Shown here: positions 1 through 44,182 of the stretch, in pieces
Numbering within the stretch: position 1 is the first letter of the stretch
Layout: each line of letters opens with the position of its first letter
NCBI GenBank assembly: GCA_902800905.1
Contig: CADCGC010000002.1
Location: 59,774-123,773, forward strand
Origin: an uncultured Erysipelotrichaceae bacterium
GTDB taxonomy: Bacteria > Bacillota_I > Bacilli_A > RFN20 > CAG-826
Direction of reading: 5' to 3'
DNA: 64,000 nt
Made by a program: the position numbers and the translations under genes
The notes under the pieces: model-generated
Database searches by the model: none
Told to the model about the DNA's origin: nothing
The model's input: the letters and a program-made list of their open reading frames with translations, nothing else

Positions 1-76
1 AGACCTTTGCTATTCAAGAATATCATTTACCGATATATCACTATATTTGTATGGAATTAGAAAAAAGGATTTGACT

Positions 77-3580: not shown

Positions 3581-4876
3581 TTATTTATTTTCTTCAAACA
3601 AGACACTTTCTGTTGTGTCTTCATCGAATAGATGGGTTTTCTTTAAATTGAAAACATATTTGTTGCTATCATCTTGTTTGATGTTCCATTTAGCGTTGAC
3701 TTTAATTGAAATTTTTTCGTCTTTGATTTCAGTATAGACAATTCTTTCATAACCAAGAAGTTCAACAAAGTTGCATTTTAGTTCGATTGGCTTACTAGCG
3801 TTTTCTTTGTTTGGGTCATCTGCAAGATAGATATCTTCTGGTCTTACTCCAAGAATTAAATCGTGTTTGTTTCCATTAATAATGCTTTCAACTTTATCAA
3901 TTAACGCTTTATGTTTTTTTAATTCTTCATCATTATCAAATTCGATTGGTTTTTTACGTTTGCTGTTTTCAATCGATTTGTTATATTCTTCAATTTCAGA
4001 ATATCTTTCAGTGTATTGCTTCTTTACTTTTAAAAGTAAATTGGAATAGTAATTATCGTGCTTTTTAATTTCTTCTTTATTCAAAGAATATTCTAAAGAA
4101 TCTGCAACAAGAATCTTACCTTTATCATATGTTACTTTTATGAAGTTCATTGATGGACTACCAATGAATCCGGCAACAAAGATATTCACTGGATGAGAAT
4201 ATAATTCTTCTGGAGTTCCGATTTGTTGAATATAGCCATCTTTCATAACAACAATACGATCCGCCATAGTCATCGCTTCGGTTTGGTCGTGGGTAACATA
4301 AATTGTGGTTGCTCCGACTTTTTGATGAATCTTAATGATTTCACTTCTCATTTGAACTCTTAATTTAGCGTCCAAATTACTTAAAGGCTCATCCATTAAG
4401 AAGACTTTTGGCTCTCTAACGATTGCTCTACCTAAAGCCACTCTTTGACGTTGTCCACCAGAAAGGGCTTTTGGCTTTCTATCTAAGTATTGTTTTAATC
4501 CAAGGATTTCTGCAGCGGCTTGAATTCTTTTATCAATCTCTTCTTTACTCATATGTCTAATTCTTAGACCGAACGCCATATTTTCATATACAGACATATG
4601 TGGGTATAGAGCATAGCTTTGGAACACCATTGCGATGTCACGATCTTTTGGATGGACTTCATTGACTAGCTTATCGTCGATATATAATTCGCCGTCGGTG
4701 ATTTCTTCTAGTCCCGCTACCATTCTTAAAGTTGTGGATTTCCCGCATCCTGATGGACCGACAAAAACAATGAATTCTTTGTCATTGACTTCTAAGTTAA
4801 AATCAAAAACAGCCTGAACATTGTTGTCATATATTTTGTTAATATTAACAAATTTTAAAGATGACATATTTTGCAC
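3581..4876 (-). CDS. sugar ABC transporter ATP-binding protein, MalK/MsmX/UgpC family, with a ~60-70 aa insertion in the C-terminal regulatory domain
   Basis: Walker [11 protein letters not shown]-loop, ABC signature [15 protein letters not shown], Walker [13 protein letters not shown] and H-loop. At 431 aa it is longer than the typical ~370 aa. Confidence 0.9.
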
Positions 4877-4892
4877 CTCGAAAACATTTTGC

Positions 4893-4932: not shown

Positions 4933-4959
4933 ATTATTCGTATATACGAGGTCAAAACT

Positions 4960-5382: not shown

Positions 5383-5385
5383 TTA

Positions 5386-6478: not shown

Positions 6479-6557
6479 ATTTATATTAGTGAAAGTGTTT
6501 ATAACGATTATAGATGCTTTTTGATATGAAACCATAATGGCAGAAAGGAATTCATTT

Positions 6558-15668: not shown

Positions 15669-15750
15669 TAATTCTTATATAACAAATTATAAATTGTTTT
15701 TCCCCATCAATATATTTTTTTGATTAGAATTGAAAAAAAATAATTCTATT

Positions 15751-15779
15751 TTGTGTGTATGTATTTACAGGCGTATAAT
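15751..15779 (+). promoter_or_regulatory. putative promoter TTGTGT-N17-TATAAT for the 15-kb surface-glycan operon
   Basis: TATAAT at about 15774-15779, 25 nt upstream of the ATG at 15804. The divergent intergenic region 15669-15803 also contains the inverted repeat AGAATT-N10-AATTCT at about 15726-15747. Confidence 0.4.
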
Positions 15780-15803
15780 TTGTGTATATCGAGATTTTGA
15801 ATT

Positions 15804-16703
15804 ATGAAAAAAGCTAAACGCAAGCATAATTCTCGTTCTTATCTGCTAACCAAAAGAGAAAAAATCATTTTAGGTATTGTTTTTGTTTTGCTTCTAATCT
15901 ATGCTTTGTCTCTTATTTTCCCATTCTTCTTTTTGCTGATGAATTCTTTCAAGGATGAAGTTGAATATTTTTATGACTCAACAGGTTTCCCAAAGACTCC
16001 AACATTTGAGAATTATATTACTTTATTTAGTGGTTATAAGGTTGGAACAGGTATTGGTGATGGCGAAGCCACTATTGGAGAGATGTTCTGGAATTCTATC
16101 TCACTAGCGGTTGTTGAAACAGTCACATCAATGTTCTTTACTTGCTGTGCAGCTTATGTTTTAGCAAAATACAAATTCCCGGGAAATAAATTCTTATACA
16201 CCTTTGTTATTGTTAGCTCTGTTGTTCCTACCATTGCAGCTATTTCTGCTACATATCGATTGATGTCAGATATTCAATTAATTGGAACATTTATTGGAAT
16301 GATTATTATGAACTGTGGCGCCTTTACTGGTGGGTTCTTATATATTCACAGCTATTTCAAGAGTATCCCTTGGTCATTTGCGGAATCTGCGATGATTGAT
16401 GGGGCAAGTGATTTTAAAATTTTCTTTAGAATTATGATTCCAATGGCGAAGAACGGAATCCTTACTTTCACTATTTTGAGATTTTTGGGATTTTGGAACG
16501 AATATTGGATTCCATATTTGTTCTATCCAAACCATCCAACTTTAGGTGTTGGATTGACTCTTTTAAAAGCAGAAGCTGTTAATACAGGTAGTTACACGAT
16601 GTTATTTGCTGCAATGATCGTGGCAATCGTTCCTATTTTGATTTTCTACGCTATATTCCAAAAACAATTATTATCAAATACTATCGACGGAGGATTGAAA
16701 TAA
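15804..16703 (+). CDS. carbohydrate ABC transporter permease (MalG/AraQ/LplC-like)
   Basis: 6 TM helices. EAA loop ESAMIDGASDFKIFFRIMIPMAKNG. Confidence 0.8.
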   Translation: MKKAKRKHNSRSYLLTKREKIILGIVFVLLLIYALSLIFPFFFLLMNSFKDEVEYFYDSTGFPKTPTFENYITLFSGYKVGTGIGDGEATIGEMFWNSISLAVVETVTSMFFTCCAAYVLAKYKFPGNKFLYTFVIVSSVVPTIAAISATYRLMSDIQLIGTFIGMIIMNCGAFTGGFLYIHSYFKSIPWSFAESAMIDGASDFKIFFRIMIPMAKNGILTFTILRFLGFWNEYWIPYLFYPNHPTLGVGLTLLKAEAVNTGSYTMLFAAMIVAIVPILIFYAIFQKQLLSNTIDGGLK

Positions 16704-16710
16704 TTAAGTT

Positions 16711-17625
16711 ATGAATGTCCAAGTGTTGAATAAGAAAAAGAAGAAAAAGATTAACGTTAGGCGAGCGCTTTTTATCGCTGGAATGTTAGCGATTCCACTC
16801 ATTCAATTTGGAATATTCTTTGTTTATGTAAATATCAATTCTATCTTGTTGACATTTAGAGTTGTTGATCCAATCACTGGTACATACGGATGGGGACTAG
16901 ACAATTATCAAGACTTCTTCTATCGATTCACTGAATATCCTGATTACAAAGATGCGATATTTAATTCGTTGATGTTTGGTCTTAATGATTTGCTCCTTGT
17001 TTTGATATCTCTTGTTTTAGCGTATTTCTTCTTTAAGAGAATACCTGGCACTCAATTCTTTAGAATTATATTCTTCTTACCATCTATTATCTCTATTGTT
17101 ATTTATACAATGGCGTATTCATTGATGTTTAAGGCTGGCTCAGGTCCAATCAACGTTTTAATTACTTCTTTAGGAGGAGAGGAGCCAGATTGGCTACTTG
17201 ATGAAAACCTAGCAAGAATGCTTGTTATGATTTATTGTTTGTGGGTTGGTACCGGATATAACATTTTGATTTTTGGTGGTGCGATGGCAAACATCAATAC
17301 TGAAGTTATTGAGTACGCTAAACTCGACGGTGTCGGCATGTTTAGAGAATTATTCCAAGTTATTCTCCCGATGATTTGGCCAACACTATCGGTTGCATTC
17401 ATTGGTAGTGTTACTACTGTCTTTACATTATTTATTCAAGTTAAATTAATCGTTGGTGATTCGTTTGGAACACCTCGAACAATCGCATTCTTGATTAACG
17501 ACAATGTTATGAGTAATCAGGAAAAAGCCGCCACAATTGGTATTATTTTCACCGTTGTTGCTACCCCGGTTATTTTACTTGTCAGAAAACTTATTGATTA
17601 CGTTGGAAAGAAATTTGGTTATTGA
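16711..17625 (+). CDS. carbohydrate ABC transporter permease (MalF/AraP/LplB-like)
   Basis: EAA loop EYAKLDGVGMFRELFQVILPMIWP. Multiple TM helices. Confidence 0.8.
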   Translation: MNVQVLNKKKKKKINVRRALFIAGMLAIPLIQFGIFFVYVNINSILLTFRVVDPITGTYGWGLDNYQDFFYRFTEYPDYKDAIFNSLMFGLNDLLLVLISLVLAYFFFKRIPGTQFFRIIFFLPSIISIVIYTMAYSLMFKAGSGPINVLITSLGGEEPDWLLDENLARMLVMIYCLWVGTGYNILIFGGAMANINTEVIEYAKLDGVGMFRELFQVILPMIWPTLSVAFIGSVTTVFTLFIQVKLIVGDSFGTPRTIAFLINDNVMSNQEKAATIGIIFTVVATPVILLVRKLIDYVGKKFGY

Positions 17626-17646
17626 TATAAATTGGAGGCCATATTT

Positions 17647-19956
17647 ATGAAAAAACAACTAACTCTATTACTCGGACTATTTGGATTAACTGCCATTGCT
17701 TTTAGTGCGGTTGGTCCAAACTATCATTCAACAAGAGCAGGATCAAAAGAAATCCTAATTGTTGATGACAATTTTAATGATGGCAATTATCGTCAAAGTT
17801 ACGATCCATCAAAATGGTTAGAACCGATTGGAGGACACATTAGACAATCAGATTCTAATGAAAGTTATTTAACAAATAAGGGAGCGGCAGCCACTAATGG
17901 TGAAAGACTTATGTTTGGCACCAAACAAATGGTTCAAGGCTTATCCTTATTTAAAATTGATGTCTGTCTTAGGAATGATGAATGGGTAGGAATTAAGTTT
18001 TATAAAGAACTCCAAACCCCTAGTTCAATGGCCCAAAATGCATATGATATGTCAATTCTTTTCCATAAGAGTGGAATTACTCCAAATAATAGTGTCTCTA
18101 CTGGACAACAATTATTTAGACATGATGGAACAGAAGCCCCCTCTGGCGGAATTGGATTACTTGAGGTTTGTGGTATCTCTAGTTCTATTGGAAATTGGGT
18201 GACTCTCGACTTTGTTCCAATTGATGCGAATAATATGACTCTCTACGTTTATCCACAAGCAGAAGGTCGTAACGCTGACAGATCTGTGACCATTAAATGT
18301 AGTGAAGATGGACTTATGAATTATGGGAATTGCCAAATTGGTATTCAAGCCAGTAATGGTGCAAGATATTCAATCGACAATTTAGTGATCGAAAGTACAA
18401 ATATAAATGTTAATGAAGAATTCGTTTCTTTTGATGATTCACTTCCAGAGAATCCTTTGGGATACGTCAAAAAGAATGGCGGTTCTTATGTTTTAGATGG
18501 TAACAGCACTCTTAGATTTGCTCCAGAAGCAATGGAAGGAGAAAAATTTGTTACTAAAAAGAAAATTGCTCTTGATATGACTATTGCAGCAGCAGTTGAA
18601 ATGATTAATGCGAAATTCAATCTTAAATTCAAATCAACCGCAGCCTCTAGTGAAAAAATCGCGTTCTTTGTTGGCTTAAGTAACGCTAGCTATGATTTAT
18701 CTCAAGGCGGATGTTACTTAGAATTTAACAAAACAAAGGTTGAATTAAAACTCTTCAAAAATGGTGTTCTAATTAATAGTGAAGAAGAACAAAGAATTCA
18801 AAAGGCAATCGATGGATTAACAAGTTCTGAAGGTAGAAATATTACTGTTTCTGTTCAAAAGAACGGAATTCTTAGAATCTATGTTGAAGATGAACTTTTA
18901 TATTCTTTAGAAGACAATGAAAACGAAGAAATGAGAGTGTCAAAATACGCTGGATATGTTGGCTTTGCGGTAACTGGTGGTTTAGCTCAAGAAGTCAATG
19001 TTGATAACGTGTTAATTAAATCTGCAAGTTATTATGTACCAGTGACAAAATCTGTCACCCATAATTTCTCTAATGATTTCTTTGGAAACGAAGGACATGA
19101 AGATTTCTATATTCCTGATAGTTATGCTGGAAAGATTTCAGTAAAAGATGGAAAACTTGATTGGGATAACTGCGCTGATAACGCGATGTTTGGTTCTGCA
19201 TATCAATATGATGCCTTTATATTAGATTACAAACTTTGTAATGTTAGAGTTGGTGAAGGATATACAGCCCCAAATAAATGGATTGGTTTAGATCTCTCTA
19301 GAGAAAGCAAATATGTTACTGAATATGGTAGTTATTTAATGCCATATATTGAAATCGTTCCAACTACTGAAGAAGTTAGAATGAATTTCTATAAGAAAGA
19401 TTCTTCTCCTCTTGATGCAAACGAGCTTGTTAAGAATATGATTGTTGAACACAAGAGAATCCCTGCGAAATGGTTTAGAGACATTCAATACACAAACGCA
19501 TCTGATGTTTATAACATTAAAGAAGAAAACGCGGTTTGCATTAGATGGGTTAGTGATGGCACAAACTTAGACTTATACCTCAAGAGAGCGGATGACCCAG
19601 TATTTGGTGAACCATATTACACAATTAAGAATCTTGAAATCCAAGGTTACTTTACTTTGACTGTCACTGGTTGGACAACCCTCCAATATGATGATTTCTC
19701 AATGGCAAATACCTCAACTCTTTACGTTTGCGCGGATAACGAATCTCCAGAGACAATCATTGATACACAAATCACAATTATCTATGAACCTGGCACAGAC
19801 ATTAACTTAGGCGAAGAAGTTAGATTATATAGCAACAACACTCTTTGGATTATTTTGGTTGCGGCTTTAGGAACAACTACTGTTGCCTTTGCTGCTTTAT
19901 TTATCGTCAATCTTGTTAGAAACAAGAAGATGAAAGGAGGAGCAAAGAATGAATAA
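17647..19956 (+). CDS. membrane-anchored surface protein (N-terminal signal peptide, C-terminal TM anchor plus basic tail), function unknown
   Basis: Start trimmed to MKKQ behind GGAGG. Signal LLLGLFGLTAIAFSA. C-terminal LWIILVAALGTTTVAFAALFIVNLVRNKKMK. It contains a DNLVIES...FVSFDD segment similar to the ends of the beta-sandwich modules in the neighbouring proteins. Confidence 0.5.
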   Translation: MKKQLTLLLGLFGLTAIAFSAVGPNYHSTRAGSKEILIVDDNFNDGNYRQSYDPSKWLEPIGGHIRQSDSNESYLTNKGAAATNGERLMFGTKQMVQGLSLFKIDVCLRNDEWVGIKFYKELQTPSSMAQNAYDMSILFHKSGITPNNSVSTGQQLFRHDGTEAPSGGIGLLEVCGISSSIGNWVTLDFVPIDANNMTLYVYPQAEGRNADRSVTIKCSEDGLMNYGNCQIGIQASNGARYSIDNLVIESTNINVNEEFVSFDDSLPENPLGYVKKNGGSYVLDGNSTLRFAPEAMEGEKFVTKKKIALDMTIAAAVEMINAKFNLKFKSTAASSEKIAFFVGLSNASYDLSQGGCYLEFNKTKVELKLFKNGVLINSEEEQRIQKAIDGLTSSEGRNITVSVQKNGILRIYVEDELLYSLEDNENEEMRVSKYAGYVGFAVTGGLAQEVNVDNVLIKSASYYVPVTKSVTHNFSNDFFGNEGHEDFYIPDSYAGKISVKDGKLDWDNCADNAMFGSAYQYDAFILDYKLCNVRVGEGYTAPNKWIGLDLSRESKYVTEYGSYLMPYIEIVPTTEEVRMNFYKKDSSPLDANELVKNMIVEHKRIPAKWFRDIQYTNASDVYNIKEENAVCIRWVSDGTNLDLYLKRADDPVFGEPYYTIKNLEIQGYFTLTVTGWTTLQYDDFSMANTSTLYVCADNESPETIIDTQITIIYEPGTDINLGEEVRLYSNNTLWIILVAALGTTTVAFAALFIVNLVRNKKMKGGAKNE

Positions 19957-21430
19957 TAAAGATAGAATTATTTCTTCAATAGGATTTGTTCTAACTCTTG
20001 TTCTTCCTTCTTGTAATGCAGGACAACTAAATGTCCCTGCTTTTGAGCATGACCCTAATAAGAGAATTCATATTACCGCTTATTCAGGTCCAACAAGAGC
20101 GAAATTAGTTACTCCAACTAGTCCAGAAACCCTTACTGAAGAGCATATGAGAAAAGTCTCTGAAGCAGGCTTTACAAAGATTCTTGCTCTATATGAAGGC
20201 GCTGGTAGACAAGTAGGCAATGATACCTATGAAATCATTGAAAATCTATCCCAAAAAGCGCAAGAGGACGCCTTAATTGCTTTAGACTTAGCGGAACAAT
20301 TTGGCATCAAATACTATGTCAGAGACTGGTCATTTTATGGAATGGTTAAGCAATACGCTGACCCAACATATAACCATCCTGCCATTTTAACTGATGAGCA
20401 ATATGACAAAGTGCTTAAGAAGATGTTCGATGAAAATAACCAATATATCCATCATCCTGCTTACGCTGGTAATTTCTGTCATGATGAGCCGTTTTATAAC
20501 GAGCTTGATCGTATCGCAGTTCAAGTTGATTTATACCAAAAATATATGGCAGAACAAAATGCTTATGGTGAGCCGATTGTTAATCTTTTACCAATGACCG
20601 CTGGCGCAGACGCTTTCAGTGGACATTCATATTATGAATATGTTGATCATTATTTTGATTTAATCGCACCAAAAGTTGGCTTTGTTTCTTATGACTTCTA
20701 TCCATTTAGAGAAGATAAAGATGATGGAAGCTATTTGAAAGATTTATATGTTCCAAACCTTAACCTTATGGCGACAAAATGCAAGGATAACAATATTGAT
20801 TTAAGAACATTTATCCAAGCTGAAGGTGATTTTACCGGAACAAGAAGCATGACTGGTGCGGCTGATTTCAGATTCCAAATCTACACTGAACTTGCCTTTG
20901 GTTCTAAAGAAATTATTTATTATGAATACGCAAATGCGAAGAGCCAGGCAGACCCAGAAGCCGATTATGCTTTATTTAATACTGAAACAGAAGAATATAA
21001 CTGGACATATGACGCTGCAAAACTTGTGAATAATGAAATTCATCAAATCGAAGATGCATATTTGCAATATAAGTGGGATGGTGTTATGTACAAGTGTGCA
21101 AATGAATTAATTGAGAATATTGGTTTCTCTTATCTTAAAGGAGAAAAATATACTTTTACTTCTCATCCACGTGTGAGCATTGAAAATTGTGAACGTGACG
21201 CTCTTATGGGTGTGTTTAAAAACGAAGCAAACGATGATGCGTTTATGCTAGTTAATTACACAGACCCATACTTCAAATTCAACAACAAAGTAACCCTTCA
21301 TTTTAATAATGCAAAAGGATTACTTATGTATCGTCTTGGACAAAAAATGGTGGTTGATCTCCCTTCTAGTGGTAACTATACATTTGATCTTTATCCTGGT
21401 GAAGGAAGATTCATTATTCCAATTAATTAA
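19949..21430 (+). CDS. lipoprotein, uncharacterised conserved enzyme-like family (paralogue 1 of 3, possibly a TIM-barrel glycoside hydrolase-like domain)
   Basis: GGAGG RBS. Lipobox LVLPSC. It shares the blocks ..EAGF.K.L.L(Y/F)EG, NLLP, YFD.IAP.VG(F/Y)VS(Y/F)D.Y, N(I/V)DLRTFI, F(R)FQIY..LAFG(S/A)KEIIYY.Y and W(S/K)WDG with 22878..24068 and with the C-terminal third of 24058..28371. Confidence 0.5.
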   Translation: MNNKDRIISSIGFVLTLVLPSCNAGQLNVPAFEHDPNKRIHITAYSGPTRAKLVTPTSPETLTEEHMRKVSEAGFTKILALYEGAGRQVGNDTYEIIENLSQKAQEDALIALDLAEQFGIKYYVRDWSFYGMVKQYADPTYNHPAILTDEQYDKVLKKMFDENNQYIHHPAYAGNFCHDEPFYNELDRIAVQVDLYQKYMAEQNAYGEPIVNLLPMTAGADAFSGHSYYEYVDHYFDLIAPKVGFVSYDFYPFREDKDDGSYLKDLYVPNLNLMATKCKDNNIDLRTFIQAEGDFTGTRSMTGAADFRFQIYTELAFGSKEIIYYEYANAKSQADPEADYALFNTETEEYNWTYDAAKLVNNEIHQIEDAYLQYKWDGVMYKCANELIENIGFSYLKGEKYTFTSHPRVSIENCERDALMGVFKNEANDDAFMLVNYTDPYFKFNNKVTLHFNNAKGLLMYRLGQKMVVDLPSSGNYTFDLYPGEGRFIIPIN

Positions 21431-21444
21431 AGGAGTTAATCAAA

Positions 21445-22854
21445 ATGAAAAAAGGAAACAAACTTATTGGAACATTGTTATTTAGTTTAGCAATGATTCT
21501 TCCATCTTGTGGTGGAACTCAAGATGACTTCAAAGGCACTTACATTGACTTTGGATTTTTGAAAGCAGGTATTGGCACTGAAGTTTATGAAAAGATCGCG
21601 GAAGCCTACCACACTGAACACCCAGATTACAAAGTCAAACTCCATGCCTCTATTGATATTAACAATATTGCGAAGAACTCATTTGAATCTGGAAAGAATA
21701 TCTATGATATTTATTCTTTAAGACAAAATAACGTTATTACTCAATACTATATCAAAGGATACTTGCTTGATTTAAAGGATGTTGTTTATAACGCTGAAAT
21801 TGCTGATGGAAAAACGCTTTTAGAATTATGTGATGAAAGCGTAATTGAGTATTCAAAATATTCCACAGAGAGAGATGGTGTGGTTGAAGACCACTTTGTC
21901 AGTGTTCCAGAGTTCGTTAATGTTAATGGCTATGTTTATAACAAGAAACTATTTGCACAACACGGATGGAAAGTTCCAAACACTACAGAAGAAATGAAAG
22001 CTCTATGCTTACAAATTGCTGCAGCAGGAATTTCGCCGATTGTTTTCTGTTCACCTAACTCCGCTGATGGATATGTCTATTATCTTTTAAACGGAATTAA
22101 TACTCAGTATGAAGGCATTCAAAATATGAAAGATGCCTATAAGTTTGAAAGTGCAGAAATCTTTAATCCTAGTAATCGTACAGGTAAACTTCACGCACTA
22201 CAAACCTTCAAAGATTTGTACAAGGAATCTAACGGACTAGTTTATCCTAACTCAATCAATATTGACGCTCAAGAAGCACAAAAAGCTTTGCTTTTAGGAA
22301 GAGCAGCAATGATGGTTAATGGTTCTTGGTTTGAAACAGAAATGAGAAAATTCATTGATCCAAGCAAGCATGAATTAGCGATGTTCAAAGTTCCTGAATA
22401 TTCTGAAGACGGAGAAATTCTCCATGCTCCTGGATACACAAACGATGGTAAAGGAATCATCGATAGTGAATATACCGCCGAATATGTTATTCCTACTTTG
22501 GCTCCTCATAAAGAAGCCGCAATCGATTTCTTAAAATTCATGCAAAGACCAGATATTTGTGAACTTTATACAAAGTATAGTAACAATATCCGTCCATTCA
22601 AATATAACAAAAACCCAGAGAGTAGTGTTTATTCAAATATGTCTTCATTTGGTAAAACTGTTTTACAACTCGCAAATGAAAACACACTCTTTGTCGCATC
22701 ATCAAAACATCCAAAATACATTCTTGGTGAAATCTCTTATTGGCCATCAGGTGATAGTGATAGGTATCACACCAATAGACTTCTTAGACAAGACAAAGAA
22801 CCAATTGATTGTTTAGAGGTTGAATATAATAACGCCAAGAAGGTTCTTGGATAG
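21445..22854 (+). CDS. lipoprotein, carbohydrate ABC transporter substrate-binding protein (family-1 SBP, LplA/MalE-like)
   Basis: AAGGAG RBS. Lipobox ILPSCGG. ~470 aa, the size and composition of a cluster-D sugar SBP. It sits between the permeases and the enzyme paralogues. Confidence 0.55.
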   Translation: MKKGNKLIGTLLFSLAMILPSCGGTQDDFKGTYIDFGFLKAGIGTEVYEKIAEAYHTEHPDYKVKLHASIDINNIAKNSFESGKNIYDIYSLRQNNVITQYYIKGYLLDLKDVVYNAEIADGKTLLELCDESVIEYSKYSTERDGVVEDHFVSVPEFVNVNGYVYNKKLFAQHGWKVPNTTEEMKALCLQIAAAGISPIVFCSPNSADGYVYYLLNGINTQYEGIQNMKDAYKFESAEIFNPSNRTGKLHALQTFKDLYKESNGLVYPNSINIDAQEAQKALLLGRAAMMVNGSWFETEMRKFIDPSKHELAMFKVPEYSEDGEILHAPGYTNDGKGIIDSEYTAEYVIPTLAPHKEAAIDFLKFMQRPDICELYTKYSNNIRPFKYNKNPESSVYSNMSSFGKTVLQLANENTLFVASSKHPKYILGEISYWPSGDSDRYHTNRLLRQDKEPIDCLEVEYNNAKKVLG

Positions 22855-22877
22855 ATTAAGAATAGGAAGATTTAACT

Positions 22878-24068
22878 GTGAACAAAGATATTAAATTTGG
22901 CTTTTGGAATTACGCTCCGTTTGGTGTTATTAGTAACAAAGAAGCGGTAAAAGATTGGGTTAATGCTGAATCTAATTTACCGATGAGCTTTGTTTATGAT
23001 TTTCATAACGGAAATAAAGAAGAAATAATTGAACTTCTTGATGAATGCCAAAAGAGCAACTTAAAGTTAATCATTTCTGATACCAGAACTATTTTTAGAA
23101 ATCTTTGTTCAGTCAGTGAAGAACAATTTAGAAAAGACGTTAAAGCGGCGTTTGATGATTTCGGTCATCATCCTGCCGCTTTCGGCTTCTTTGTTGGAGA
23201 CGAACCTTCTCCTGAAGAAACAGATTTATTTATAAAAGCCGTTAAAATTGTTAAAGAAGAAACGCCTGGACTAGTTCCTTTTGGTAATCTTCTTCCATAT
23301 TTTGGAGCAAGTGACCATGTCTTAGACATTGGGAACAAAAACTTTGAATATTATTCCAATCTAGTGGGCAAGATATTAAAAGAAACCGGACTTCCAGTTA
23401 TTGGATACGATCAATATAGCCAGTGCTTAGATGATTTAGGCAATCAAGAAACCGGAATCAATAGCTATTTCATTGGTTTGGACAAATATTATGACTTATG
23501 TAAGAAGAACGATTCTTCCTTCTATATCTCTCTTCTTTCGGTTGGACACTGGATGTATCGCGTTCCAAGTGAAGATGATATTAGATGGCAAATATCGACC
23601 GCTTTTGCTCATGGGGCTAGAGGAGTTATTTGGTTCTATTTCTATCAAGATGATAAAGATTATAGTTATCGCTTATCTCCATTTACAAATTATGGACTCA
23701 AGAAAACTCCGATGTACGATATCGTGAGTCGAGAACAATATCTCTTCAAAAAAACATTTGAAGATCAATTCAACAAAATGGAACTCGTTAATGTTTATCA
23801 TCTAGGCCATATATATGATGAAAACAAAAGATTTGTTTATGACGAATATATCAAAGATGTAATGGTAGATAGAAAACTTCCTGTTATCATTTCGTATTAT
23901 AAAGAATTTAATAGCGACAAAAAGTGGGTTTCATTTGTTAATGGATCTCAAAAATATGCGAGTATTTTAAGAATCACATTTTCTAAAGGACACAAAGAAG
24001 TGTTCTGGCTTGCTCCTGGAGAGATGAGACTATTTGATTTAGACGAGGTTTGCACTAGTGAAGAATAA
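22878..24068 (+). CDS. cytoplasmic paralogue (2 of 3) of the uncharacterised enzyme-like family
   Basis: GTG start and no signal peptide. HHPAAFGFFVGDEP, GNLLPYFG, GYDQY, GARGVIWFYFYQD correspond to the same blocks as in 19949..21430. Confidence 0.5.
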   Translation: MNKDIKFGFWNYAPFGVISNKEAVKDWVNAESNLPMSFVYDFHNGNKEEIIELLDECQKSNLKLIISDTRTIFRNLCSVSEEQFRKDVKAAFDDFGHHPAAFGFFVGDEPSPEETDLFIKAVKIVKEETPGLVPFGNLLPYFGASDHVLDIGNKNFEYYSNLVGKILKETGLPVIGYDQYSQCLDDLGNQETGINSYFIGLDKYYDLCKKNDSSFYISLLSVGHWMYRVPSEDDIRWQISTAFAHGARGVIWFYFYQDDKDYSYRLSPFTNYGLKKTPMYDIVSREQYLFKKTFEDQFNKMELVNVYHLGHIYDENKRFVYDEYIKDVMVDRKLPVIISYYKEFNSDKKWVSFVNGSQKYASILRITFSKGHKEVFWLAPGEMRLFDLDEVCTSEE

Positions 24069-27000
24069 AACCATATCTATTTTGTTTTTAGGAGTTATTG
24101 GAGTTGTCGCATCTGCGATAGCTTTATCGCACTCTCATGATGTTGCTTTAGCTAGTGGAACGGATGAACATTCAAGTTCATGCACCTGGAATCACTATTT
24201 AAGAGTTGAACCGACATATGAAAATGATGGAATACAAGAATATTATGTCTGCTGTTCTCATCATGAAAGCGTTCTAGAAAGACCAACACTTGGGACAATC
24301 GTTGATAAAGGCACTCCATCCTCTTCTTTTATCAGTGGTTTAGAAGATAATGATTTCAGATTAATTCCTTCATATCGAAAACAAGTTAAACCAGTTCAAG
24401 ATGAAATTGATGGGCTTTCTGAGGCGTTTAAGATATCTGATGGCAGTCAAATTGATAAAGCATATAACCTTTATAACAACACTAGTGAAGAGCTTAAAAC
24501 CTATGTTAATGATGTTTCAAAATTAGAAGGCATTTATGAGAGATACCACGAATCATATGATGTTCTTATCGATACAGTTAATAATGAATATCAATCAAAG
24601 ATATATAATTCGAATTATGATGTTGAACCAGTTTTAAATGAAAACGCTGGATATTGTTCTTCTTTTACTAATATCACTCCAACTGATGACAACTGGATTG
24701 GTTTTGGCACTTCAAAGACCACAAATATTTCAAACTATAGCGAGATATTGCTCTATGTATATAGCAACCTAAATTTCGATTGTGATTTTGATGTTAGGTA
24801 TTCTGGTAGCACTTTTGACTTAACAAACAAAGTTAAAGTTTATTCTAAATCATGGAGTGAAATAACAATTCCTCTTTCAACATTTATAACAAATCAATTG
24901 AAAGACTTATTTGTTGGTACATGGATTAGTGATGCTAGATATAACACTTTTGAGAATGGGTTTTTATTCTCTTCGCTTTACGGCGTTAAAAAGATTACTA
25001 CCCCAAGTAGAACATATATTGATTTGTCTGATGATCAAAAGACCACTGACACAGTCAACTTTGTTGGTGACAAATATATTGAAGACGTGAATTATGCAGC
25101 CTTTGTTTATTCTCCTGCTTATTCTGCTTCACTTGGAAAAGTTAACTTTATTACCACTCAACCATATAGCAACGTCACCTCTGTTAGTTTTGATGCGAAG
25201 ATCGATGGAACGGCGACAGGATGGTGGGGTATTGGCCACTCAACCTCTATTGAAAACGCAAGAATATATAACGGAATGTGCACAACCGGTGTCAAAAACA
25301 CTCAAAACGAATTCCAACATATCGCAATTAATGTTAGTGTAACTGACCCGGAATACATTTACTTTATTTTTGAAGTTGGAACATTTACTAAAAATGTCTA
25401 TATCGATAATGTCACTATCGTTAGTGGTGGAGTTGAATACACTGATGATTTTGATAGCGGTTCTTCAGCCTTATTTAATAATTCTTCATCAGTTTTAGGA
25501 AATGCAGTTAGCATTCAATTAATCAGTAGCGATGCTAAATTCTTATCACGTTCAGTAAAAGACTACTATGTTGAAGTTAGTCCATATAATTACGATACTT
25601 CGACATTATATACACGTTCATCTTATACAGGTGTTTATAAGGTTTCTTATGACGCAAAAGTTGATGGAACAATTGTTAATAATCTTTCAAACAATGAACA
25701 AATTTGGTGGGGTTTTGGTGTTACTGATGACCCAACAAACGTTTACTCTGGACTTCAATTTGTTAGAGAAGTGCTATCTACTGATAATGAATGGAAACAT
25801 TTTGAATATGAGATTCAAACTCCAGTTGATGGATATGTTCACTTTGTGTTCAATCCATTAAAGACGAATGTTCCTGTTCTTTTAGATAACATTACTTTCT
25901 TTACTGAAGGTAGTGTCTTTGTTGAAAACTTTACTGATGGGCTATCCACTTTATTTAATGTTGGCGCTCATCTTGATATTAAGAAGAAGAGCGACCCATC
26001 AATTACCTTCAATGGTGGAATTAACGCCTCAGAAAAAGACTATTCTGTCTTAATGGATATTTATAATTATGGCAACGTTTCTGGCAATGAAGCGACATTT
26101 AAAACAAAAGTTCCATATAACAACGTTACGAGTATCTCCTATGATATGAAGATTGATGGGACCATAACATTTACAAACACAGATCCATATTGGGTTGGTG
26201 TCGGTCATGACGCAAATCAAAACGCTAGTATCTATAAAGGACTTAGAACATCTAACACATTTACTACTAATGATGGTTGGATGAGATTTACATATACATT
26301 CTCTGGACTAGGCTTAGAATATTTCTTCTTTGTTTCTAATCCTGTTCACGCCCATAACAATGTTTATTTTGACAATGTCATTATTGTTAGTGATGGAGTG
26401 GAATACACTGATACATTTACCAACGGAAAGAGCGAACTATTTAATTTAGGTTCTTATGTTTCTTTACATTTTGAATCAGAAAGCATGACCGATGAAATTG
26501 CCTATAATGTATTAACAGAGAGTCAATGCTATTTTGAAGGTCCTCAATTTGTTAGAGATAATTTAGAAAATTATGAAGCCTTAGTGTATGGCTCTATTGC
26601 TCATCAAATTACAGGACAAGGAAGGTATGCGATTCTTATTTATAATGATTTGAATGTTGCGGAATATTTATTTGTTGATGATGAATATATTTCTTACTGT
26701 TCTAATACTTCAATAATTAATGCCACGTCTTATAATGGGCAGTCTTATAACATCAGTGTTTCAGTAGATGGAAGAATAACAATTAACAATCAGATTCTCG
26801 CTATTTCTAGTGGAGTTAATGATTCACTTAAATTTGTGTCGTTCTTTAGCCAAGGTTCGGTTGTCTTTACTGATATTTCTTTAGATTCAACTTATAGAGA
26901 AATTCATACTTCTGAAACAATTGATGGAATAGAAGTTCCTTACTTATATTCAGAAGATAATATTGTGTTTAACGCATATGGTTCTCCAACAGTTGCCGAT

Positions 27001-28371
27001 TGGAATGGTGTGAAAGATAGTAACCCAACTATGGCGACTGATGAAATCTTCCAAGATTACTATGACGCTGGATTTAGAAAGTGCTTGCCACTTTTTGAAG
27101 GACGAACTGGAGCAAGATATGACTTCAATACTTATTATGATTTGTATCTTGAAGCAACTGGTTCGCAAAAAGAATCATACAAAAACCAATGTATCCAAAA
27201 ACTCGACATTATTTGTGAAAAAGCCGACAGAGACGCGATGGAAATAATGTCTGTTGCCTCTAAATATGGAATTAAATATATTGTTCTTAATTCAATTATT
27301 TTTGAACTAATTGGACAAACTACTCCAAACGGAAACAATATTCAGATTGAAGATTATCCATGGATTTTTGATCGTGTCTTTAGAGATGACAGCGAATATT
27401 TCTATCAAGTTCAATACGTTGGTAACTTTATGCAAGATGAACCAATTGGTGTTGAAGGACTTGAAAGATTATATGCGGCTGTTGTTTTGTATTATCAATA
27501 TACAGCGGCTTTAGGAATTGAAAGTGAACCTGTTATTAATCTACTTCCTGGAAACTACACGGATAATAATTATGTCGCTTATCTTGATTATTATTTTGAA
27601 CATATTGCTCCTCTTGTTGGATATGTTAGCTTTGACCAATATGTCTTACAAGTTTCTAATGGCACTTATTCAGTGAAGTCCACACACTTATCTAACTTAT
27701 ATTTATTAGCCTCACGAGCAAAACAATATAATGTCGATTTAAGAACGTTCATTTTCCCAAGATGTCAGGATGAGGGAAGTAATAGAGGCATTACAATGGC
27801 GGATGAACTAAGGTTCCAAATTTACGCCAATTTGGCTTTTGGTGCTAAAGAAATCATCTATTATGGTTATACAACTCATAACAGCACAAATGAAACAGAA
27901 GGTCTTGTTAATATGTATACCGGAGAGAAGAGCGATGTATATTACTACGCTAAAGAAGTTAATAACGAAGTATTATCTTTCGGTCAAGCATATATGCATT
28001 TCTCATGGGATGGAATTATTGGTAAAGACACTGGTGGGTGGCTAAGTAAAAATACCTGCCTAACTCAATTAAGTAAACTTAATTCGATGAATAGTCACGC
28101 TGGATTATCATCTTTCTCTGTTAATAAGAACTCACTCATTGGTTGCTTCAAAGATAGTGATTCTCAATACGCATATATTCTTATGTATTATGGCGATCCA
28201 AAAACCGCAAGTGGAACAGACACAATTCAATTAACTTTCTTAGACAAATATAATGGCGTTATTGTTTATCAAAACGGTGGAAAACACGCTTATCGAATTG
28301 ATAATCATAAGCAATCTATTACTCTTAATCCTGGTTGTGGAGCGTTTGTTATCCCGGTAACTTTAAATTAG
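24058..28371 (+). CDS. 1437-aa surface protein with an N-terminal anchor, a Cys/His mini-module, 3-4 WWGFG beta-sandwich (CBM-like) modules, and a C-terminal enzyme-like domain (paralogue 3 of 3)
   Basis: GTG start overlapping the upstream gene. N-terminal hydrophobic segment ILFLGVIGVVASAIAL. The repeats and the C-terminal homology (NVDLRTFIFPRCQDEG..ELRFQIYANLAFGAKEIIYYGY..YMHFSWDG) are read directly from the translation. Confidence 0.6.
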   Translation: MKNKTISILFLGVIGVVASAIALSHSHDVALASGTDEHSSSCTWNHYLRVEPTYENDGIQEYYVCCSHHESVLERPTLGTIVDKGTPSSSFISGLEDNDFRLIPSYRKQVKPVQDEIDGLSEAFKISDGSQIDKAYNLYNNTSEELKTYVNDVSKLEGIYERYHESYDVLIDTVNNEYQSKIYNSNYDVEPVLNENAGYCSSFTNITPTDDNWIGFGTSKTTNISNYSEILLYVYSNLNFDCDFDVRYSGSTFDLTNKVKVYSKSWSEITIPLSTFITNQLKDLFVGTWISDARYNTFENGFLFSSLYGVKKITTPSRTYIDLSDDQKTTDTVNFVGDKYIEDVNYAAFVYSPAYSASLGKVNFITTQPYSNVTSVSFDAKIDGTATGWWGIGHSTSIENARIYNGMCTTGVKNTQNEFQHIAINVSVTDPEYIYFIFEVGTFTKNVYIDNVTIVSGGVEYTDDFDSGSSALFNNSSSVLGNAVSIQLISSDAKFLSRSVKDYYVEVSPYNYDTSTLYTRSSYTGVYKVSYDAKVDGTIVNNLSNNEQIWWGFGVTDDPTNVYSGLQFVREVLSTDNEWKHFEYEIQTPVDGYVHFVFNPLKTNVPVLLDNITFFTEGSVFVENFTDGLSTLFNVGAHLDIKKKSDPSITFNGGINASEKDYSVLMDIYNYGNVSGNEATFKTKVPYNNVTSISYDMKIDGTITFTNTDPYWVGVGHDANQNASIYKGLRTSNTFTTNDGWMRFTYTFSGLGLEYFFFVSNPVHAHNNVYFDNVIIVSDGVEYTDTFTNGKSELFNLGSYVSLHFESESMTDEIAYNVLTESQCYFEGPQFVRDNLENYEALVYGSIAHQITGQGRYAILIYNDLNVAEYLFVDDEYISYCSNTSIINATSYNGQSYNISVSVDGRITINNQILAISSGVNDSLKFVSFFSQGSVVFTDISLDSTYREIHTSETIDGIEVPYLYSEDNIVFNAYGSPTVADWNGVKDSNPTMATDEIFQDYYDAGFRKCLPLFEGRTGARYDFNTYYDLYLEATGSQKESYKNQCIQKLDIICEKADRDAMEIMSVASKYGIKYIVLNSIIFELIGQTTPNGNNIQIEDYPWIFDRVFRDDSEYFYQVQYVGNFMQDEPIGVEGLERLYAAVVLYYQYTAALGIESEPVINLLPGNYTDNNYVAYLDYYFEHIAPLVGYVSFDQYVLQVSNGTYSVKSTHLSNLYLLASRAKQYNVDLRTFIFPRCQDEGSNRGITMADELRFQIYANLAFGAKEIIYYGYTTHNSTNETEGLVNMYTGEKSDVYYYAKEVNNEVLSFGQAYMHFSWDGIIGKDTGGWLSKNTCLTQLSKLNSMNSHAGLSSFSVNKNSLIGCFKDSDSQYAYILMYYGDPKTASGTDTIQLTFLDKYNGVIVYQNGGKHAYRIDNHKQSITLNPGCGAFVIPVTLN
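25138..26450 (+). repeat. three tandem ~140-aa beta-sandwich modules (V(S/K)(F/Y)DAK(I/V)DGT....WWG(I/F)G....(I/V)Y.G......W.....(Y/F)..........F.F......V.(I/L/F)DN(V/I).....G.....E.FT.G.S.LFN)
   Basis: The three copies end in VYIDNVTIVSGGVEYTDDFDSGSSALFN, VLLDNITFFTEGSVFVENFTDGLSTLFN and VYFDNVIIVSDGVEYTDTFTNGKSELFN. Confidence 0.65.
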
Positions 28372-28391
28372 TTTAGTAAGGAGTTGGTTTT

Positions 28392-30677
28392 ATGAAAAAA
28401 TCATTTATTTTATCCGCATTAATTCTAAGTCTTTCTCTTTTGAGTGGCTGCACAAGTAATTCCGATAGTGGAGGTGGAGGAGGAGATCCTATTGACCCAG
28501 AAGAACAATGTGAACATAGTTATAAATATCACCAAAAGGTTGAAGCCACTTGTACTGAAGATGGAAACGAAGCATATTTTTCATGTTCCAATTGCGACAA
28601 GATTTTTAACGAAAAGAAGCAAGAAACCCCATATTCTGAACTTGTTATCCCTGCCTTGGGACATGATATTGGACACGTTAATGCGACAACTCCACGCAAT
28701 TGCTTGGAACTAAGTGTCATTGAACATTATCACTGTAGTAGATGTGAAAAGAACTTTGAGGATGAAGCCGCTACTATTGAACTCGATTCAATCGATGGAT
28801 ATTATGGTGAGCATAATTTCGTTGATTACCCTGCCAAAGCCGCTTCTTGCGCTGAAGAAGGGAACATTGCCTATGCCGAATGTTCTTATTGCCATAAAAT
28901 ATATTCAATTGATCATCAAACCCAGATTACTGACGGTTCATATATTATTGAAAAAACACAACACCATTTGACACATCATGAAGCTGTTCAATTTGAAAAT
29001 ATTGAATATTGGGAATGCTCTGAATGTGAAAAAAAATTCTCTGATGAAGACGGAGGCGAAGAAGTGGAAAATGTTTCTATTCGTGATGAACACGATTTAT
29101 TAAATGATAATGTTAAGAATTATCTTGCCGCGACTACTGAAGCAGATCAAATCAATGCTTTAAGAGTATCAACTCCATTTAATAATCAAGTTAGAAAAGT
29201 CCTTTCATGGAAAACTAATGATAATGGACCATACACTATTGAAGTCTCTGAGAGCCAAGATTTTACCAATCCTATGACATTTACTGCTTCTAATTCACCA
29301 TTAACTCTTCCTGGAACATTATTCCCAGGACATACATATTATTGGAGAGTAAAAGATAGTTCTGATCAATTAGTAGTGACCATTGAAAGATTTATTGTTG
29401 ATGGCACTTATCCAGTTAGAACTCTATTCGTTGATGGAGTCTCTAATGTTAGAGACGCTGGAGGATGGACTGCTAAAGACGGAAACAAAGTCCTTTATGG
29501 AAAAATCATTAGAGGTGGAAGATTAAGAGATATCACTGAGGATGGCAAAAAAACATTCTTAGAAGATTTAGGCATTAAAACCGAACTTGATTTAAGAGGC
29601 GATGGTGTAAGTGATATTTCTGATTCTAGACTCACATATATCAAGCAAGGACTTAACCAATACACAATGCTAGTTCCTAATTATCTTTCTCCTATCGTTC
29701 AAGGAAAAGGTGATTTAAGATATGGGTTTGACACCACAACTCCTAATGCGCTAGCGGCAATTTTCAATGTCTTAGCCGATTCCTCTAATTATCCAATTTA
29801 TTATCACTGCAATGCTGGAGCAGATAGAACCGGTTCATTAACTTATTTAATCAATGGTCTTCTTGGTGTTTCTTATGAAGATTTAACAAGAGATTTTGAA
29901 TTAACAACATTCTCTGCTCAAGGAAACAGATTCCGTAGTGGTGTTAGTGGAAATAGTTTTGTTTCTACTGGTGAGATGGCAGGAATCTATGAATGTGACT
30001 CCCTTAACTATGTCGCTTGGGGAAAACTTCACGAGCTTATTTCCACCAATTACGCGCAAGAAAACGGACAATTATGTTCGGCGATTGAATATTATTTGAA
30101 GAAAGTTTGTAAGATTTCTGATGAAACAATTAAACAAGTTAGAAGAAACCTCTTAGGAAAAGATGTTGAATTTGATGAAGTGGTTGTGGAAGACGAAAGC
30201 ACAGTGTTTACTCCTGAAAATGGTAACCAGACATTAGCAAATCAAATAGAATATGAAAAAGGTAATTTCTTCGGTAAATTGTCCTATAAGTTCACTGCCT
30301 ATACTCCAACTGGCCAAGGCAAAGTTGACCACTATATTTATCATAATTTAGATATTATTAATAATCCTGCCTACACAAAATTCCATTTTGATGTCTATGT
30401 TCCAGCGACAAGTGCAAAGTGGAACACAAGTGAAGGAAAAGATACTGGAGCAAGATTTGCAATCTCCGCAAAAGCTTCATCGACTACACGTATTGAATTT
30501 AGTGATGAATTCTCTTCATCATCTACTAATAAATACAAGATTATTACTGATGAGTGGATGACTTTTGAAATTGAGATTTCTCAGTTTAGTAATCTCATTC
30601 GTTTTGCGTTCTATTTGCCTTATGCTACTGAGCAAATTCCAGCGATAGTGTATTTTGCAAACGTCCACGTTTCTTAA
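28392..30677 (+). CDS. lipoprotein with N-terminal Cys/His-rich repeats, an FN3-like segment, a CX5R protein-tyrosine-phosphatase-fold domain (Y_phosphatase3/Siw14-like) and a C-terminal beta-sandwich
   Basis: Lipobox LSLLSGCTS followed by a Gly5 linker. Repeated C.H..Y.....A(T/S)C.E.GN.AY..CS.C.K.(F/Y). The PTP-domain entry is NVRDAGGW...LYG..IRGGRL, and the P-loop is HCNAGADRTG at about 29804-29833. Confidence 0.6.
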   Translation: MKKSFILSALILSLSLLSGCTSNSDSGGGGGDPIDPEEQCEHSYKYHQKVEATCTEDGNEAYFSCSNCDKIFNEKKQETPYSELVIPALGHDIGHVNATTPRNCLELSVIEHYHCSRCEKNFEDEAATIELDSIDGYYGEHNFVDYPAKAASCAEEGNIAYAECSYCHKIYSIDHQTQITDGSYIIEKTQHHLTHHEAVQFENIEYWECSECEKKFSDEDGGEEVENVSIRDEHDLLNDNVKNYLAATTEADQINALRVSTPFNNQVRKVLSWKTNDNGPYTIEVSESQDFTNPMTFTASNSPLTLPGTLFPGHTYYWRVKDSSDQLVVTIERFIVDGTYPVRTLFVDGVSNVRDAGGWTAKDGNKVLYGKIIRGGRLRDITEDGKKTFLEDLGIKTELDLRGDGVSDISDSRLTYIKQGLNQYTMLVPNYLSPIVQGKGDLRYGFDTTTPNALAAIFNVLADSSNYPIYYHCNAGADRTGSLTYLINGLLGVSYEDLTRDFELTTFSAQGNRFRSGVSGNSFVSTGEMAGIYECDSLNYVAWGKLHELISTNYAQENGQLCSAIEYYLKKVCKISDETIKQVRRNLLGKDVEFDEVVVEDESTVFTPENGNQTLANQIEYEKGNFFGKLSYKFTAYTPTGQGKVDHYIYHNLDIINNPAYTKFHFDVYVPATSAKWNTSEGKDTGARFAISAKASSTTRIEFSDEFSSSSTNKYKIITDEWMTFEIEISQFSNLIRFAFYLPYATEQIPAIVYFANVHVS
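28510..29040 (+). repeat. three to four Cys/His-rich ~40-aa repeats, possibly small metal-binding modules
   Basis: CEHSYKYHQKVEATCTEDGNEAYFSCSNCDKIF; NCLELSVIEHYHCSRCEKNF; ASCAEEGNIAYAECSYCHKIY; EYWECSECEKKF. Confidence 0.5.
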
Positions 30678-30700
30678 TTAGATATTACTAAATTATCATA

Positions 30701-30731
30701 GGGGAATTCGTTAATGAATTCTCCTTTTTTG
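30701..30731 (+). terminator. strong rho-independent terminator ending the 15-kb operon
   Basis: GGGGAATTC-gttaat-GAATTCTCC followed by TTTTTTG. Confidence 0.7.
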
Positions 30732-30768
30732 TTGAAAAATGAATTGATTTGATTTTTTTGGAATTTTC

Positions 30769-36108: not shown

Positions 36109-36152
36109 TTTCCGTTACACCAAAAAACGCATAATTTATCATAAACATTTAT

Positions 36153-36183
36153 GGGAGGTTTTTTAAACCTCCCTATTTGTTTA
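36153..36183 (+). terminator. rho-independent terminator between the starch-binding and amylase genes
   Basis: GGGAGGTTT-ttt-AAACCTCCC followed by TATTTGTTT. Confidence 0.65.
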
Positions 36184-36253
36184 ATTGGGCATCTAGAACC
36201 AATTAAAGAAATATATTTAATAAAAGTTATTATTTTTAATAAGGATTTTATAT

Positions 36254-38263: not shown

Positions 38264-38272
38264 GAGGCAAAT

Positions 38273-41032: not shown

Positions 41033-41038
41033 AAACAT

Positions 41039-41455: not shown

Positions 41456-41480
41456 AAATTTTAGTAAAAGGAGGCTATTT

Positions 41481-43358: not shown

Positions 43359-43365
43359 TTAATTT

Positions 43366-44172: not shown

Positions 44173-44182
44173 GGAGGTTCAT

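Follow-up and report, generated by a model that had tools for sequence, protein, structure and literature searches.

Enzyme-like barrel proteins and putative glycan-binding modules in a probable polysaccharide-utilisation-type operon of an uncultured Erysipelotrichaceae bacterium

What is the function of an operon in which nearly all of the protein families are missing from the family databases? The operon in question occupies positions 15804-30677 of a 64,000-nucleotide (nt) stretch of contig CADCGC010000002.1 (here called the window; G+C about 34%), which comes from an uncultured Erysipelotrichaceae bacterium. A first-pass annotation had likened it to a polysaccharide-utilisation locus (PUL), with surface-binding proteins and enzymes, an importer and one enzyme-like paralogue in the cytoplasm, and this reading is supported by a gene order conserved in 35 related loci and by the glycoside hydrolase (GH)-type barrels found in the paralogues. 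As an overall model we lean, with somewhat more confidence than doubt, towards a Gram-positive PUL-type system for glycans that contain N-acetylhexosamine (HexNAc). A check of the open reading frames (ORFs) against the earlier coordinates recovered all eight genes, each on the forward strand; they and the elements discussed with them are the following:

15804..16703, + strand, MalG/UgpE-type CUT1 permease of an ATP-binding cassette (ABC) importer (BPD_transp_1, E 2.3e-14; weak MalG/UgpE matches in NCBIfam)
16711..17625, + strand, MalF/UgpA-type CUT1 ABC permease (BPD_transp_1, E 7.5e-13)
17647..19956, + strand, type I membrane protein of 769 amino acids (aa) with three ConA-like lectin domains
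19949..21430, + strand, P4, an enzyme-like lipoprotein of 493 aa with D179-E180-P181
21445..22854, + strand, lipoprotein solute-binding protein (SBP) of the importer (SBP_bac_1, E 8.7e-24)
22878..24068, + strand, P6, a cytoplasmic paralogue of 396 aa without signal peptide, with D108-E109-P110
24058..28371, + strand, P7, an N-terminally anchored surface protein of 1437 aa with a Cys/His motif, three WWG modules and a C-terminal paralogue
26929..28368, + strand, the C-terminal, putatively catalytic paralogue within P7, homologous to P4, with D1127-E1128-P1129
28392..30677, + strand, P8, a lipoprotein of 761 aa with a phosphatase of the protein tyrosine phosphatase (PTP) fold (Y_phosphatase3)
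30700..30733, + strand, intrinsic terminator with an 11-bp stem (4 GC pairs), then TTTTTTGTTG

Consecutive genes are separated by gaps of 6-23 nt or overlap by 8-11 nt, and because of this spacing it is well supported, though not proven, that the eight genes would form one transcription unit. Of the single promoter and single terminator that had been proposed to bracket them, the terminator was recovered, with its hairpin at 30700-30725 and a T-run to 30733, and is the sole convincing one 3' of the last gene; the promoter is plausible only, as the 135-nt gap between the operon and the divergent gene at 13524-15668 holds a perfect -10 box (TATAAT, 15774-15779) with a poor -35, and a consensus promoter scan called none upstream of the first permease gene. 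A terminator scan returned 10 such hairpins where 7.3 were expected. One of these terminator-like hairpins, with an 11-bp stem, lies at 25889-25916 inside the second WWG module of P7 and is probably due to chance.

The three enzyme-like proteins are members of one family, as had been suspected, and BLASTP and profile comparison agree on this point. P4 and aa 958-1437 of P7 share 32% identity (E 7e-62), P4 and P6 are related by BLASTP at E 8e-10, and the P4-family and P6-family profiles align over 350 columns in hhalign (98.2% probability, E 3.5e-14). The hidden Markov model (HMM) searches suggested at first pass matched no Pfam or NCBIfam model to P4, P6 or the C-terminus of P7, and when the 493-aa and 396-aa proteins and the family profiles were compared with the PDB by sequence and by profile, only chance-level matches were obtained. 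The claim that no GH family can be assigned therefore holds against Pfam, NCBIfam and the PDB, which served as proxies; CAZy and dbCAN lie outside this comparison, and a recently numbered CAZy family may cover the paralogues. Across 80 family members (sets of 37 and 43), the only Pfam signals were sub-threshold ones to GH42, DUF4434 and GH99, all of which belong to the Pfam clan of TIM-barrel glycosidases. GH42 was hit by 6 of the 37 and 2 of the 43 (E 0.0045-0.023), and DUF4434 (PF14488) by 10 of the 43, a set drawn from the cytoplasmic subfamily, with a best E of 3.9e-6; the latter matches also fall below the Pfam threshold, and P6 of the window itself gives none. In the literature we found no described function for DUF4434 and nothing relevant on a new GH42-like family. 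The superfamily is large, with 3,740 representatives at 50% identity (E <= 1e-3), or 2,291 at E <= 1e-10, and many members are the C-terminal part of larger surface proteins, 900-2,200 aa in length. In ten multi-domain relatives no Pfam domain was recognised except one Listeria-Bacteroides repeat and one weak DUF1542 match, and NCBIfam gave nothing either.

Structure prediction, which the first-pass annotation had proposed as a check, gave a GH-type barrel, the fold that it had suggested looking for. In the model of P4 a (beta/alpha)8 barrel (aa ~40-370) is followed directly by a beta-sandwich (aa 375-493), and a Glu stands after strand 4 as in clan GH-A, E180 following the predicted strand 172-179. 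The fold neighbours are GH42 and clan GH-A, and not GH20 or GH123; they include GH42 enzymes (PDB 3tts, 1kwk and 5xb7; beta-galactosidases and alpha-L-arabinopyranosidases) and the GH164 beta-mannosidase 6t5o, at 10-18% identity. Membership of GH42 was nevertheless rejected on four counts. None of the three window paralogues matches PF02449 (Glyco_hydro_42) above its gathering score; there is no Glyco_hydro_42M match, the barrel lacking the trimerisation domain of the three-domain GH42 enzymes; and both the Asn-Glu pair and the strand-7 Glu of that family are missing. When both family profiles were aligned by hhalign with the GH42 sequence of T. thermophilus, the result was not significant (probability <1%); this query was a hand-entered sequence, its motif positions agreeing with the literature numbering. 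Because this comparison was not significant, the link to GH42 rests on fold and not on sequence.

To describe the putative active site, we surveyed an alignment of 95 diverse members drawn from all subfamilies, using P4 numbering. Y45, D179, E180, N212, D249 and Y251 are the invariant polar residues, together with P181, and each of the polar ones is located at or just past the C-terminal end of a predicted barrel strand. D179-E180-P181 comes after strand 4, the position of the 'N-E-P' acid/base motif of clan GH-A, and Asp precedes Glu in all 95 members, in place of the Asn-Glu pair of GH42. The Asn of the clan GH-A pair contacts O2. After strand 6, a Y-D-F-Y-P segment aligns with the W-D-S-Y-P motif of GH42. 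At the end of strand 7, where GH42 has its Glu nucleophile, no Glu was found in the register given by predicted secondary structure and HMM alignment, rather than by superposition: P4-type members have Q at this position, P6-type members have L and the P7 domain of the window has F, with W, H or Q elsewhere, and in the P6 subfamily the whole strand-7 segment is free of Asp and Glu. D249 is the sole conserved carboxylate besides D179-E180, D306 being common and not universal. From this survey of strands 4 and 7 the family appears to have kept the acid/base, to lack the canonical nucleophile and to carry Asp for Asn. By its position, equivalent to the Glu of the clan GH-A NEP motif, we infer that E180 would be the general acid/base.

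How could such a barrel cleave a glycosidic bond? In the reading that we prefer, the Asp that precedes E180 suggests the substrate-assisted (neighbouring-group) route by which GH20 and GH123 enzymes act on 2-acetamido sugars. An Asp-Glu pair without an enzymic nucleophile is the pattern of GH20, GH123, GH163 and GH185, the likeness being one of sequence pattern only; the GH20 and the GH123 and DUF4091 groups also have adjacent Asp and Glu on a (beta/alpha)8 barrel and no protein nucleophile (PMC11087588). The DUF4091 beta-N-acetylgalactosaminidases use the Glu as acid/base and the Asp to stabilise the acetamido group, and some of these substrate-assisted hexosaminidases release Gal-beta1,3-GalNAc (PMC11087588), a product that would feed a GH112 phosphorylase. 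As homes for an enzyme with the DE motif, GH185/GH163 (DUF4838; PMC10570127) and GH123/DUF4091 (PMC11087588) were both set aside for want of a sequence match: GH20, DUF4091 and DUF4838 were not among the Pfam matches listed at E <= 1 for the 80 members (the best 25 families for the set of 43, all 17 for the set of 37). With a modelled fold like that of known beta-galactosidases and one of the two catalytic residues of these enzymes missing, the paralogues are a good candidate for a new GH family.

The loss of the nucleophile from a GH-like barrel that is otherwise kept could also mean that the paralogues are not hydrolytic at all, acting instead as carbohydrate-binding pseudo-enzymes, transglycosylases or phosphorylases, which we regard as improbable. 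A stronger competitor, which we think possible if rather doubtful, keeps the same architecture and directs it at a plant or microbial glycan without HexNAc, for example pectic rhamnogalacturonan I (RG-I) or arabinogalactan side chains; E180 would then be the acid/base, D249 on strand 6 or D179 would be the nucleophile or base, and the GH112 enzyme encoded upstream in the window would be a Gal-beta1,4-L-rhamnose (GalRha) phosphorylase. The invariance of D249 speaks for it, as does the presence of GH27 and GH151 enzymes and a putative fucosidase among the fold matches. A strand-4/strand-6 arrangement of carboxylates occurs in GH27, GH29, GH31 and GH36. However, the Asp of the D-x-Y-P motif is shared with GH42, in which it is not known to be catalytic.

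A gene-pattern scan, with one genome per species, yielded 42 related loci. Every one lies in a genome that was assembled from a metagenome or is otherwise uncultured; the genomes are labelled Bacilli, Erysipelotrichaceae, Christensenellaceae, Oscillospiraceae, Acutalibacteraceae, Candidatus Scatosoma and similar, and the samples were taken from the rumen and omasum, from sheep colon and horse faeces, and from the human gut (including Hadza). In the 35 loci in which the lectin-protein gene adjoins the enzyme gene, the order permease-permease-lectin protein-enzyme-SBP is conserved, and the components are distributed as follows:

SBP: 34 of 35 loci
Both permeases: 29 of 35 loci, the rest being cut by contig ends
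WWG-module proteins: 23 of 35 loci
Rhamnosidase-like (alpha/alpha)6 gene: 13 of 35 loci, in most cases as the same-strand gene immediately before the permeases
Cytoplasmic paralogue: 9 of 35 loci
GH95-like gene: 7 of 35 loci
GH112 gene: 7 of 35 loci, within 10 kb of the core
MsmK gene: 5 of 35 loci
Phosphatase: 1 of 35 loci

An AraC-type regulator is encoded upstream of the permeases in 23 of the 42 loci (for example at 4597-5421 of locus L001 and 2717-3661 of L012). No regulator gene stands beside the operon of the window, which is abutted there by the GH95-like gene.

The third product of this conserved core, the lectin protein, had been described as a 774-aa protein anchored by a C-terminal transmembrane (TM) helix. 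The anchor was found (aa ~731-764), but the length is most likely 769 aa: the ORF spans 17632-19956, and its real start is most likely the ATG at 17647, matching the 769-aa database protein P0241. Scaffolds of 150 kb in ENA metagenome assemblies that bear the label STEW19, which probably denotes cattle-rumen samples, encode an identical protein. After the signal peptide come three ConA-like lectin domains (aa 32-250, 254-463 and 470-688) with the beta-sandwich of the lectin/glucanase fold, as in L-type lectins or GH16; Pfam and NCBIfam returned nothing for this protein. A catalytic role of the GH16 type was rejected, there being no ExDxxE motif. The juxtamembrane segment (aa ~690-728, nt 19714-19830) is predicted to be disordered (pLDDT <50), yet many of its residues are near-invariant in the family (Y693, N698, E699, E702, Y713, D718, N720, E724 and N728), which suggests that it may be a docking site for a partner, such as the permeases, the SBP or the adjacent enzyme.

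A second kind of putative binding element is the WWG module. The first-pass annotation had counted three to four WWGFG copies fused to the paralogue in P7; three were confirmed (aa 336-470, 497-630 and 656-792; nt 25063-25467, 25546-25947 and 26023-26433), and the fourth (aa 190-335) was unsupported on test, as was a WWG module at the C-terminus of the phosphatase. The P7 modules score E 1e-59 to 1e-67 against their own HMM, which is circular, since these were the sequences used to build it. The 917-aa lipoprotein encoded at 6537-9290, to which the N-terminal part of P7 is homologous (E 8e-20), has four copies that are independent of the HMM and score E 1e-6 to 1e-3. After one iteration the HMM found 131 modules in 34 proteins, with up to 11 per protein, and 32 of the 34 proteins are encoded beside core genes in related loci. 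The module has no match in Pfam or NCBIfam and only chance-level ones in the PDB (e.g. the Lam16A CBM4, E 0.087). Because its profile aligns with that of the first lectin domain of the 769-aa family (96.4% probability, E 1.4e-9), the WWG module can be read as a compact jelly-roll relative of that domain. In related loci, giant surface proteins of 1,700-2,400 aa with 7-11 WWG modules were seen (L031, 12824-20044; L023, 13674-18902; L021, 13042-18432), the one in L021 also having Listeria-Bacteroides-type repeats and no catalytic domain. These giant proteins point to a dedicated multivalent binding apparatus.

As had been annotated, the operon encodes two sugar ABC permeases, both matching BPD_transp_1, and a lipoprotein SBP matching SBP_bac_1, which are CUT1-type components by Pfam and NCBIfam. 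The closest PDB relative of the SBP is 9h0n (BiGFL-BP/Blon_0883), at E 1.3e-22; NagB2 and NagB1, two SBPs for chitin oligosaccharides, come next. BiGFL-BP of B. infantis binds lacto-N-biose (LNB), galacto-N-biose (GNB) and fucosylated forms, namely the trisaccharides H type 1 and Lewis-a (bioRxiv 10.1101/2025.02.07.637197). The operon contains no ATPase gene, as had been noticed; genes of the MsmK/MalK type lie elsewhere in the window, one at 3581-4876, which would complete the CUT1 set, and an unusually long one (625 aa) at 41481-43358, and in five related loci (L008-L011 and L013) an MsmK-type gene is situated directly 3' of the SBP gene. The absence of an ATPase gene from the operon is thus the usual shared-MsmK arrangement and no anomaly. 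We also observed genes for RDD-family membrane proteins at 5386-6450 and 43366-44172, each close to an MsmK/MalK-type ATPase gene, the former divergent from the ATPase gene at 3581-4876 and the latter directly downstream of that at 41481-43358.

Upstream of the operon, the window carries further genes that belong to this picture:

47..2242, + strand, GH112 1,3-beta-galactosyl-N-acetylhexosamine phosphorylase (TIGR02336 equivalog, 868.6 bits against a cut-off of 560.3)
3581..4876, - strand, MsmK/UgpC-type ABC ATPase, candidate energiser of the importer (ABC_tran and OB_MalK; UgpC subfamily, 488 bits)
6537..9290, + strand, non-catalytic lipoprotein of 917 aa with Listeria-Bacteroides-type repeats, one Cys/His motif and four WWG modules
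9345..11594, + strand, GH2-family glycosidase adjoining the WWG lipoprotein gene (GH2 domains)
11591..13522, - strand, cytoplasmic (alpha/alpha)6 rhamnosidase-like protein (Bac_rhamnosid6H, E 1e-17; RhaB 2okx, E 1.5e-5)
13524..15668, - strand, cytoplasmic GH95-like protein, divergent (Glyco_hydro_95_cat, E 3e-37; GH95 structures, E 8.5e-20 and weaker)

Because the GH95-like, rhamnosidase-like, WWG lipoprotein, GH2, MsmK and GH112-GH130 genes lie there, the functional unit is wider than the operon and extends upstream to GH112. Two homologues of the 917-aa lipoprotein are found inside the L001 operon, and GH2 homologues occur downstream of the core in L021 and L026. Directly after GH112 is a gene like those for GH130 beta-mannoside phosphorylases (the pair spans 47-3247), whose best NCBIfam match is far below cut-off.

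We propose that the lectin protein and the WWG modules would hold the glycan at the cell surface, where the lipoprotein enzyme and the WWG-fused enzyme would cut it into oligosaccharides; the SBP would pass these to the permeases, and P6 would complete the breakdown in the cytoplasm together with the GH95-like enzyme, the rhamnosidase-like enzyme and GH112. The substrate would be beta-linked HexNAc glycans, most likely with Gal-beta1,3-HexNAc (LNB/GNB) blocks, possibly fucosylated, from host mucins, glycoconjugates or similar microbial glycans. The three clues for such blocks are indirect: the SBP relative 9h0n, the equivalog score of GH112 and the recurrent GH95-like gene.

Several points weigh against a HexNAc substrate and substrate-assisted catalysis, and some of them favour the plant or microbial glycan without HexNAc introduced above. 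The rhamnosidase-like gene, which adjoins the permeases in the 13 loci, is the commonest cytoplasmic neighbour, and the samples (rumen, omasum, and horse, sheep and Hadza gut) represent the rumen and other fibre-rich guts; gene and habitat alike suggest plant glycans. GH112 includes GalRha phosphorylases tied to the breakdown of pectic RG-I (PMC8950772), and the window enzyme may be of either the GalRha or the GNB/LNB type. At E 1e-22 the SBP is only a distant match, which does not establish its ligand; nagA and nagB are both lacking in the vicinity of the operon, and the paralogues match none of the GH20, DUF4091 and DUF4838 models. It is possible that D249 or D179 is a second catalytic carboxylate, and the strand ends were taken from the secondary structure of the model, not from superposition. 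Enzymatic activity in the family, co-transcription of the operon and its induction by sugar are all predictions. On the other side, the nearest solved relatives of the SBP all bind HexNAc-containing ligands, GH112 scores far above the cut-off for Gal-HexNAc phosphorylases and gives 709 bits against B. longum GLNBP, and the rhamnosidase-like protein is only remotely GH78-like, as its E value to RhaB indicates. The HexNAc-directed PUL is the model that we favour.

P8, the last product of the operon, was correctly recognised at first pass as a lipoprotein with a PTP-fold phosphatase domain: Y_phosphatase3 covers aa 347-588 (nt 29430-30155; E 8e-29, 101.7 bits against a cut-off of 22.2), and the CX5R P-loop is intact (HCNAGADRTG). 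The domain is preceded by four N-terminal Cys-rich repeats and followed by a C-terminal domain without assignment; its distant solved relative is PDB 8dhi (E 2.2e-9), on which we found nothing relevant in the literature. A surface phosphatase with an intact CX5R motif that closes the operon could be the key to a different system, one that processes a phosphorylated non-glycan or teichoic-acid-like polymer with the barrels as accessory esterases or phosphodiesterases. We consider this highly improbable: a homologue of P8 was found in one related locus only (L037), the transporter is of the CUT1 sugar type, and all identifiable neighbours are carbohydrate-active enzymes (CAZymes). The phosphatase is an accessory part of the system, and in the HexNAc-directed model it would remove a phosphate decoration in this strain. 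We also noted a Cys/His motif of ~35 aa (C-x-H ... C ... C-x2-C, e.g. CEHSYKYHQKVEATCTEDGNEAYFSCSNCDKIF), present four times in P8 (28392-29120, aa 1-245), once in P7 (24058-24300, aa ~38-75) and once in the 917-aa protein (6537-9290, aa ~245-285); its sole Pfam signal is a weak one to RYYR-CCHC (E 0.002), and it looks like an extracellular zinc-ribbon-like module.

Elsewhere in the window, a separate starch/maltodextrin cluster (34582-48116) encodes a protein with weak matches of carbohydrate-binding module (CBM) type, a GH13 amylase, a pullulanase (PUD, CBM48), a MalK-type ATPase, an SBP and two permeases. At 61282-63343 the gene for a 353-aa APH-family kinase, with only a weak homoserine-kinase match in NCBIfam, adjoins one for a SASA-type (sialate O-acetylesterase-like) esterase. 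The APH fold family is that of the N-acetylhexosamine 1-kinase NahK, and if this kinase were NahK, the GNB/LNB pathway would be complete together with GH112. At 57025-57522 a phage MuF C-terminal domain is encoded by a small ORF beside a helix-turn-helix regulator gene, and no other phage genes were noticed nearby.

How does the locus relate to known systems? In general kind it resembles the Gram-positive PULs already described (PMC5320581): like them, it has transporter and putative degradative enzymes co-localised, with an AraC-type regulator in 23 relatives, but the window operon has no adjacent regulator and its enzymes fall outside the families recognised by Pfam, NCBIfam and the PDB. The Roseburia loci for human milk oligosaccharides (HMO) and mucin consist of an ABC importer, a block-releasing GH136, GH112 and GH29/GH95 (PMC7335108). 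With the Roseburia/Eubacterium HMO-mucin loci and the BiGFL-BP importer of B. infantis, our locus shares an ABC importer with dedicated SBP, a putatively block-releasing enzyme, GH112 and a putative GH95-type fucosidase in one neighbourhood; it differs in having an unclassified family in the place of GH136, in adding the lectin-domain membrane protein and the WWG surface proteins, and in its hosts, uncultured Bacilli and Clostridia from rumen and gut. As far as Pfam, NCBIfam and the PDB show, the novelty lies in the putative catalytic family and its unusual set of residues, in the triple-lectin membrane protein and in the WWG module. Going further, we advance, as a tentative possibility that could well prove wrong, that the paralogues are a new GH family in which a GH42-like clan-A barrel has lost the strand-7 nucleophile, NEP has become DEP and catalysis proceeds by the neighbouring group, representing a new class of lacto-/galacto-N-biosidase or a related HexNAc-cleaving enzyme, alongside an undescribed surface capture apparatus (triple-lectin protein and WWG modules) widespread in uncultured gut and rumen Firmicutes.

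Because a large superfamily without annotation is present in uncultured rumen and gut Bacilli and Clostridia, there is a whole class of glycan-utilisation loci that annotation by Pfam and NCBIfam misses, as annotation of CAZymes probably does as well. New CBM families may be represented by the lectin-domain membrane protein and by the WWG modules. A single characterised member of the enzyme family could define a new GH family and explain the diet of common uncultured gut lineages, and it would demonstrate that a clan GH-A scaffold can function with no canonical nucleophile.

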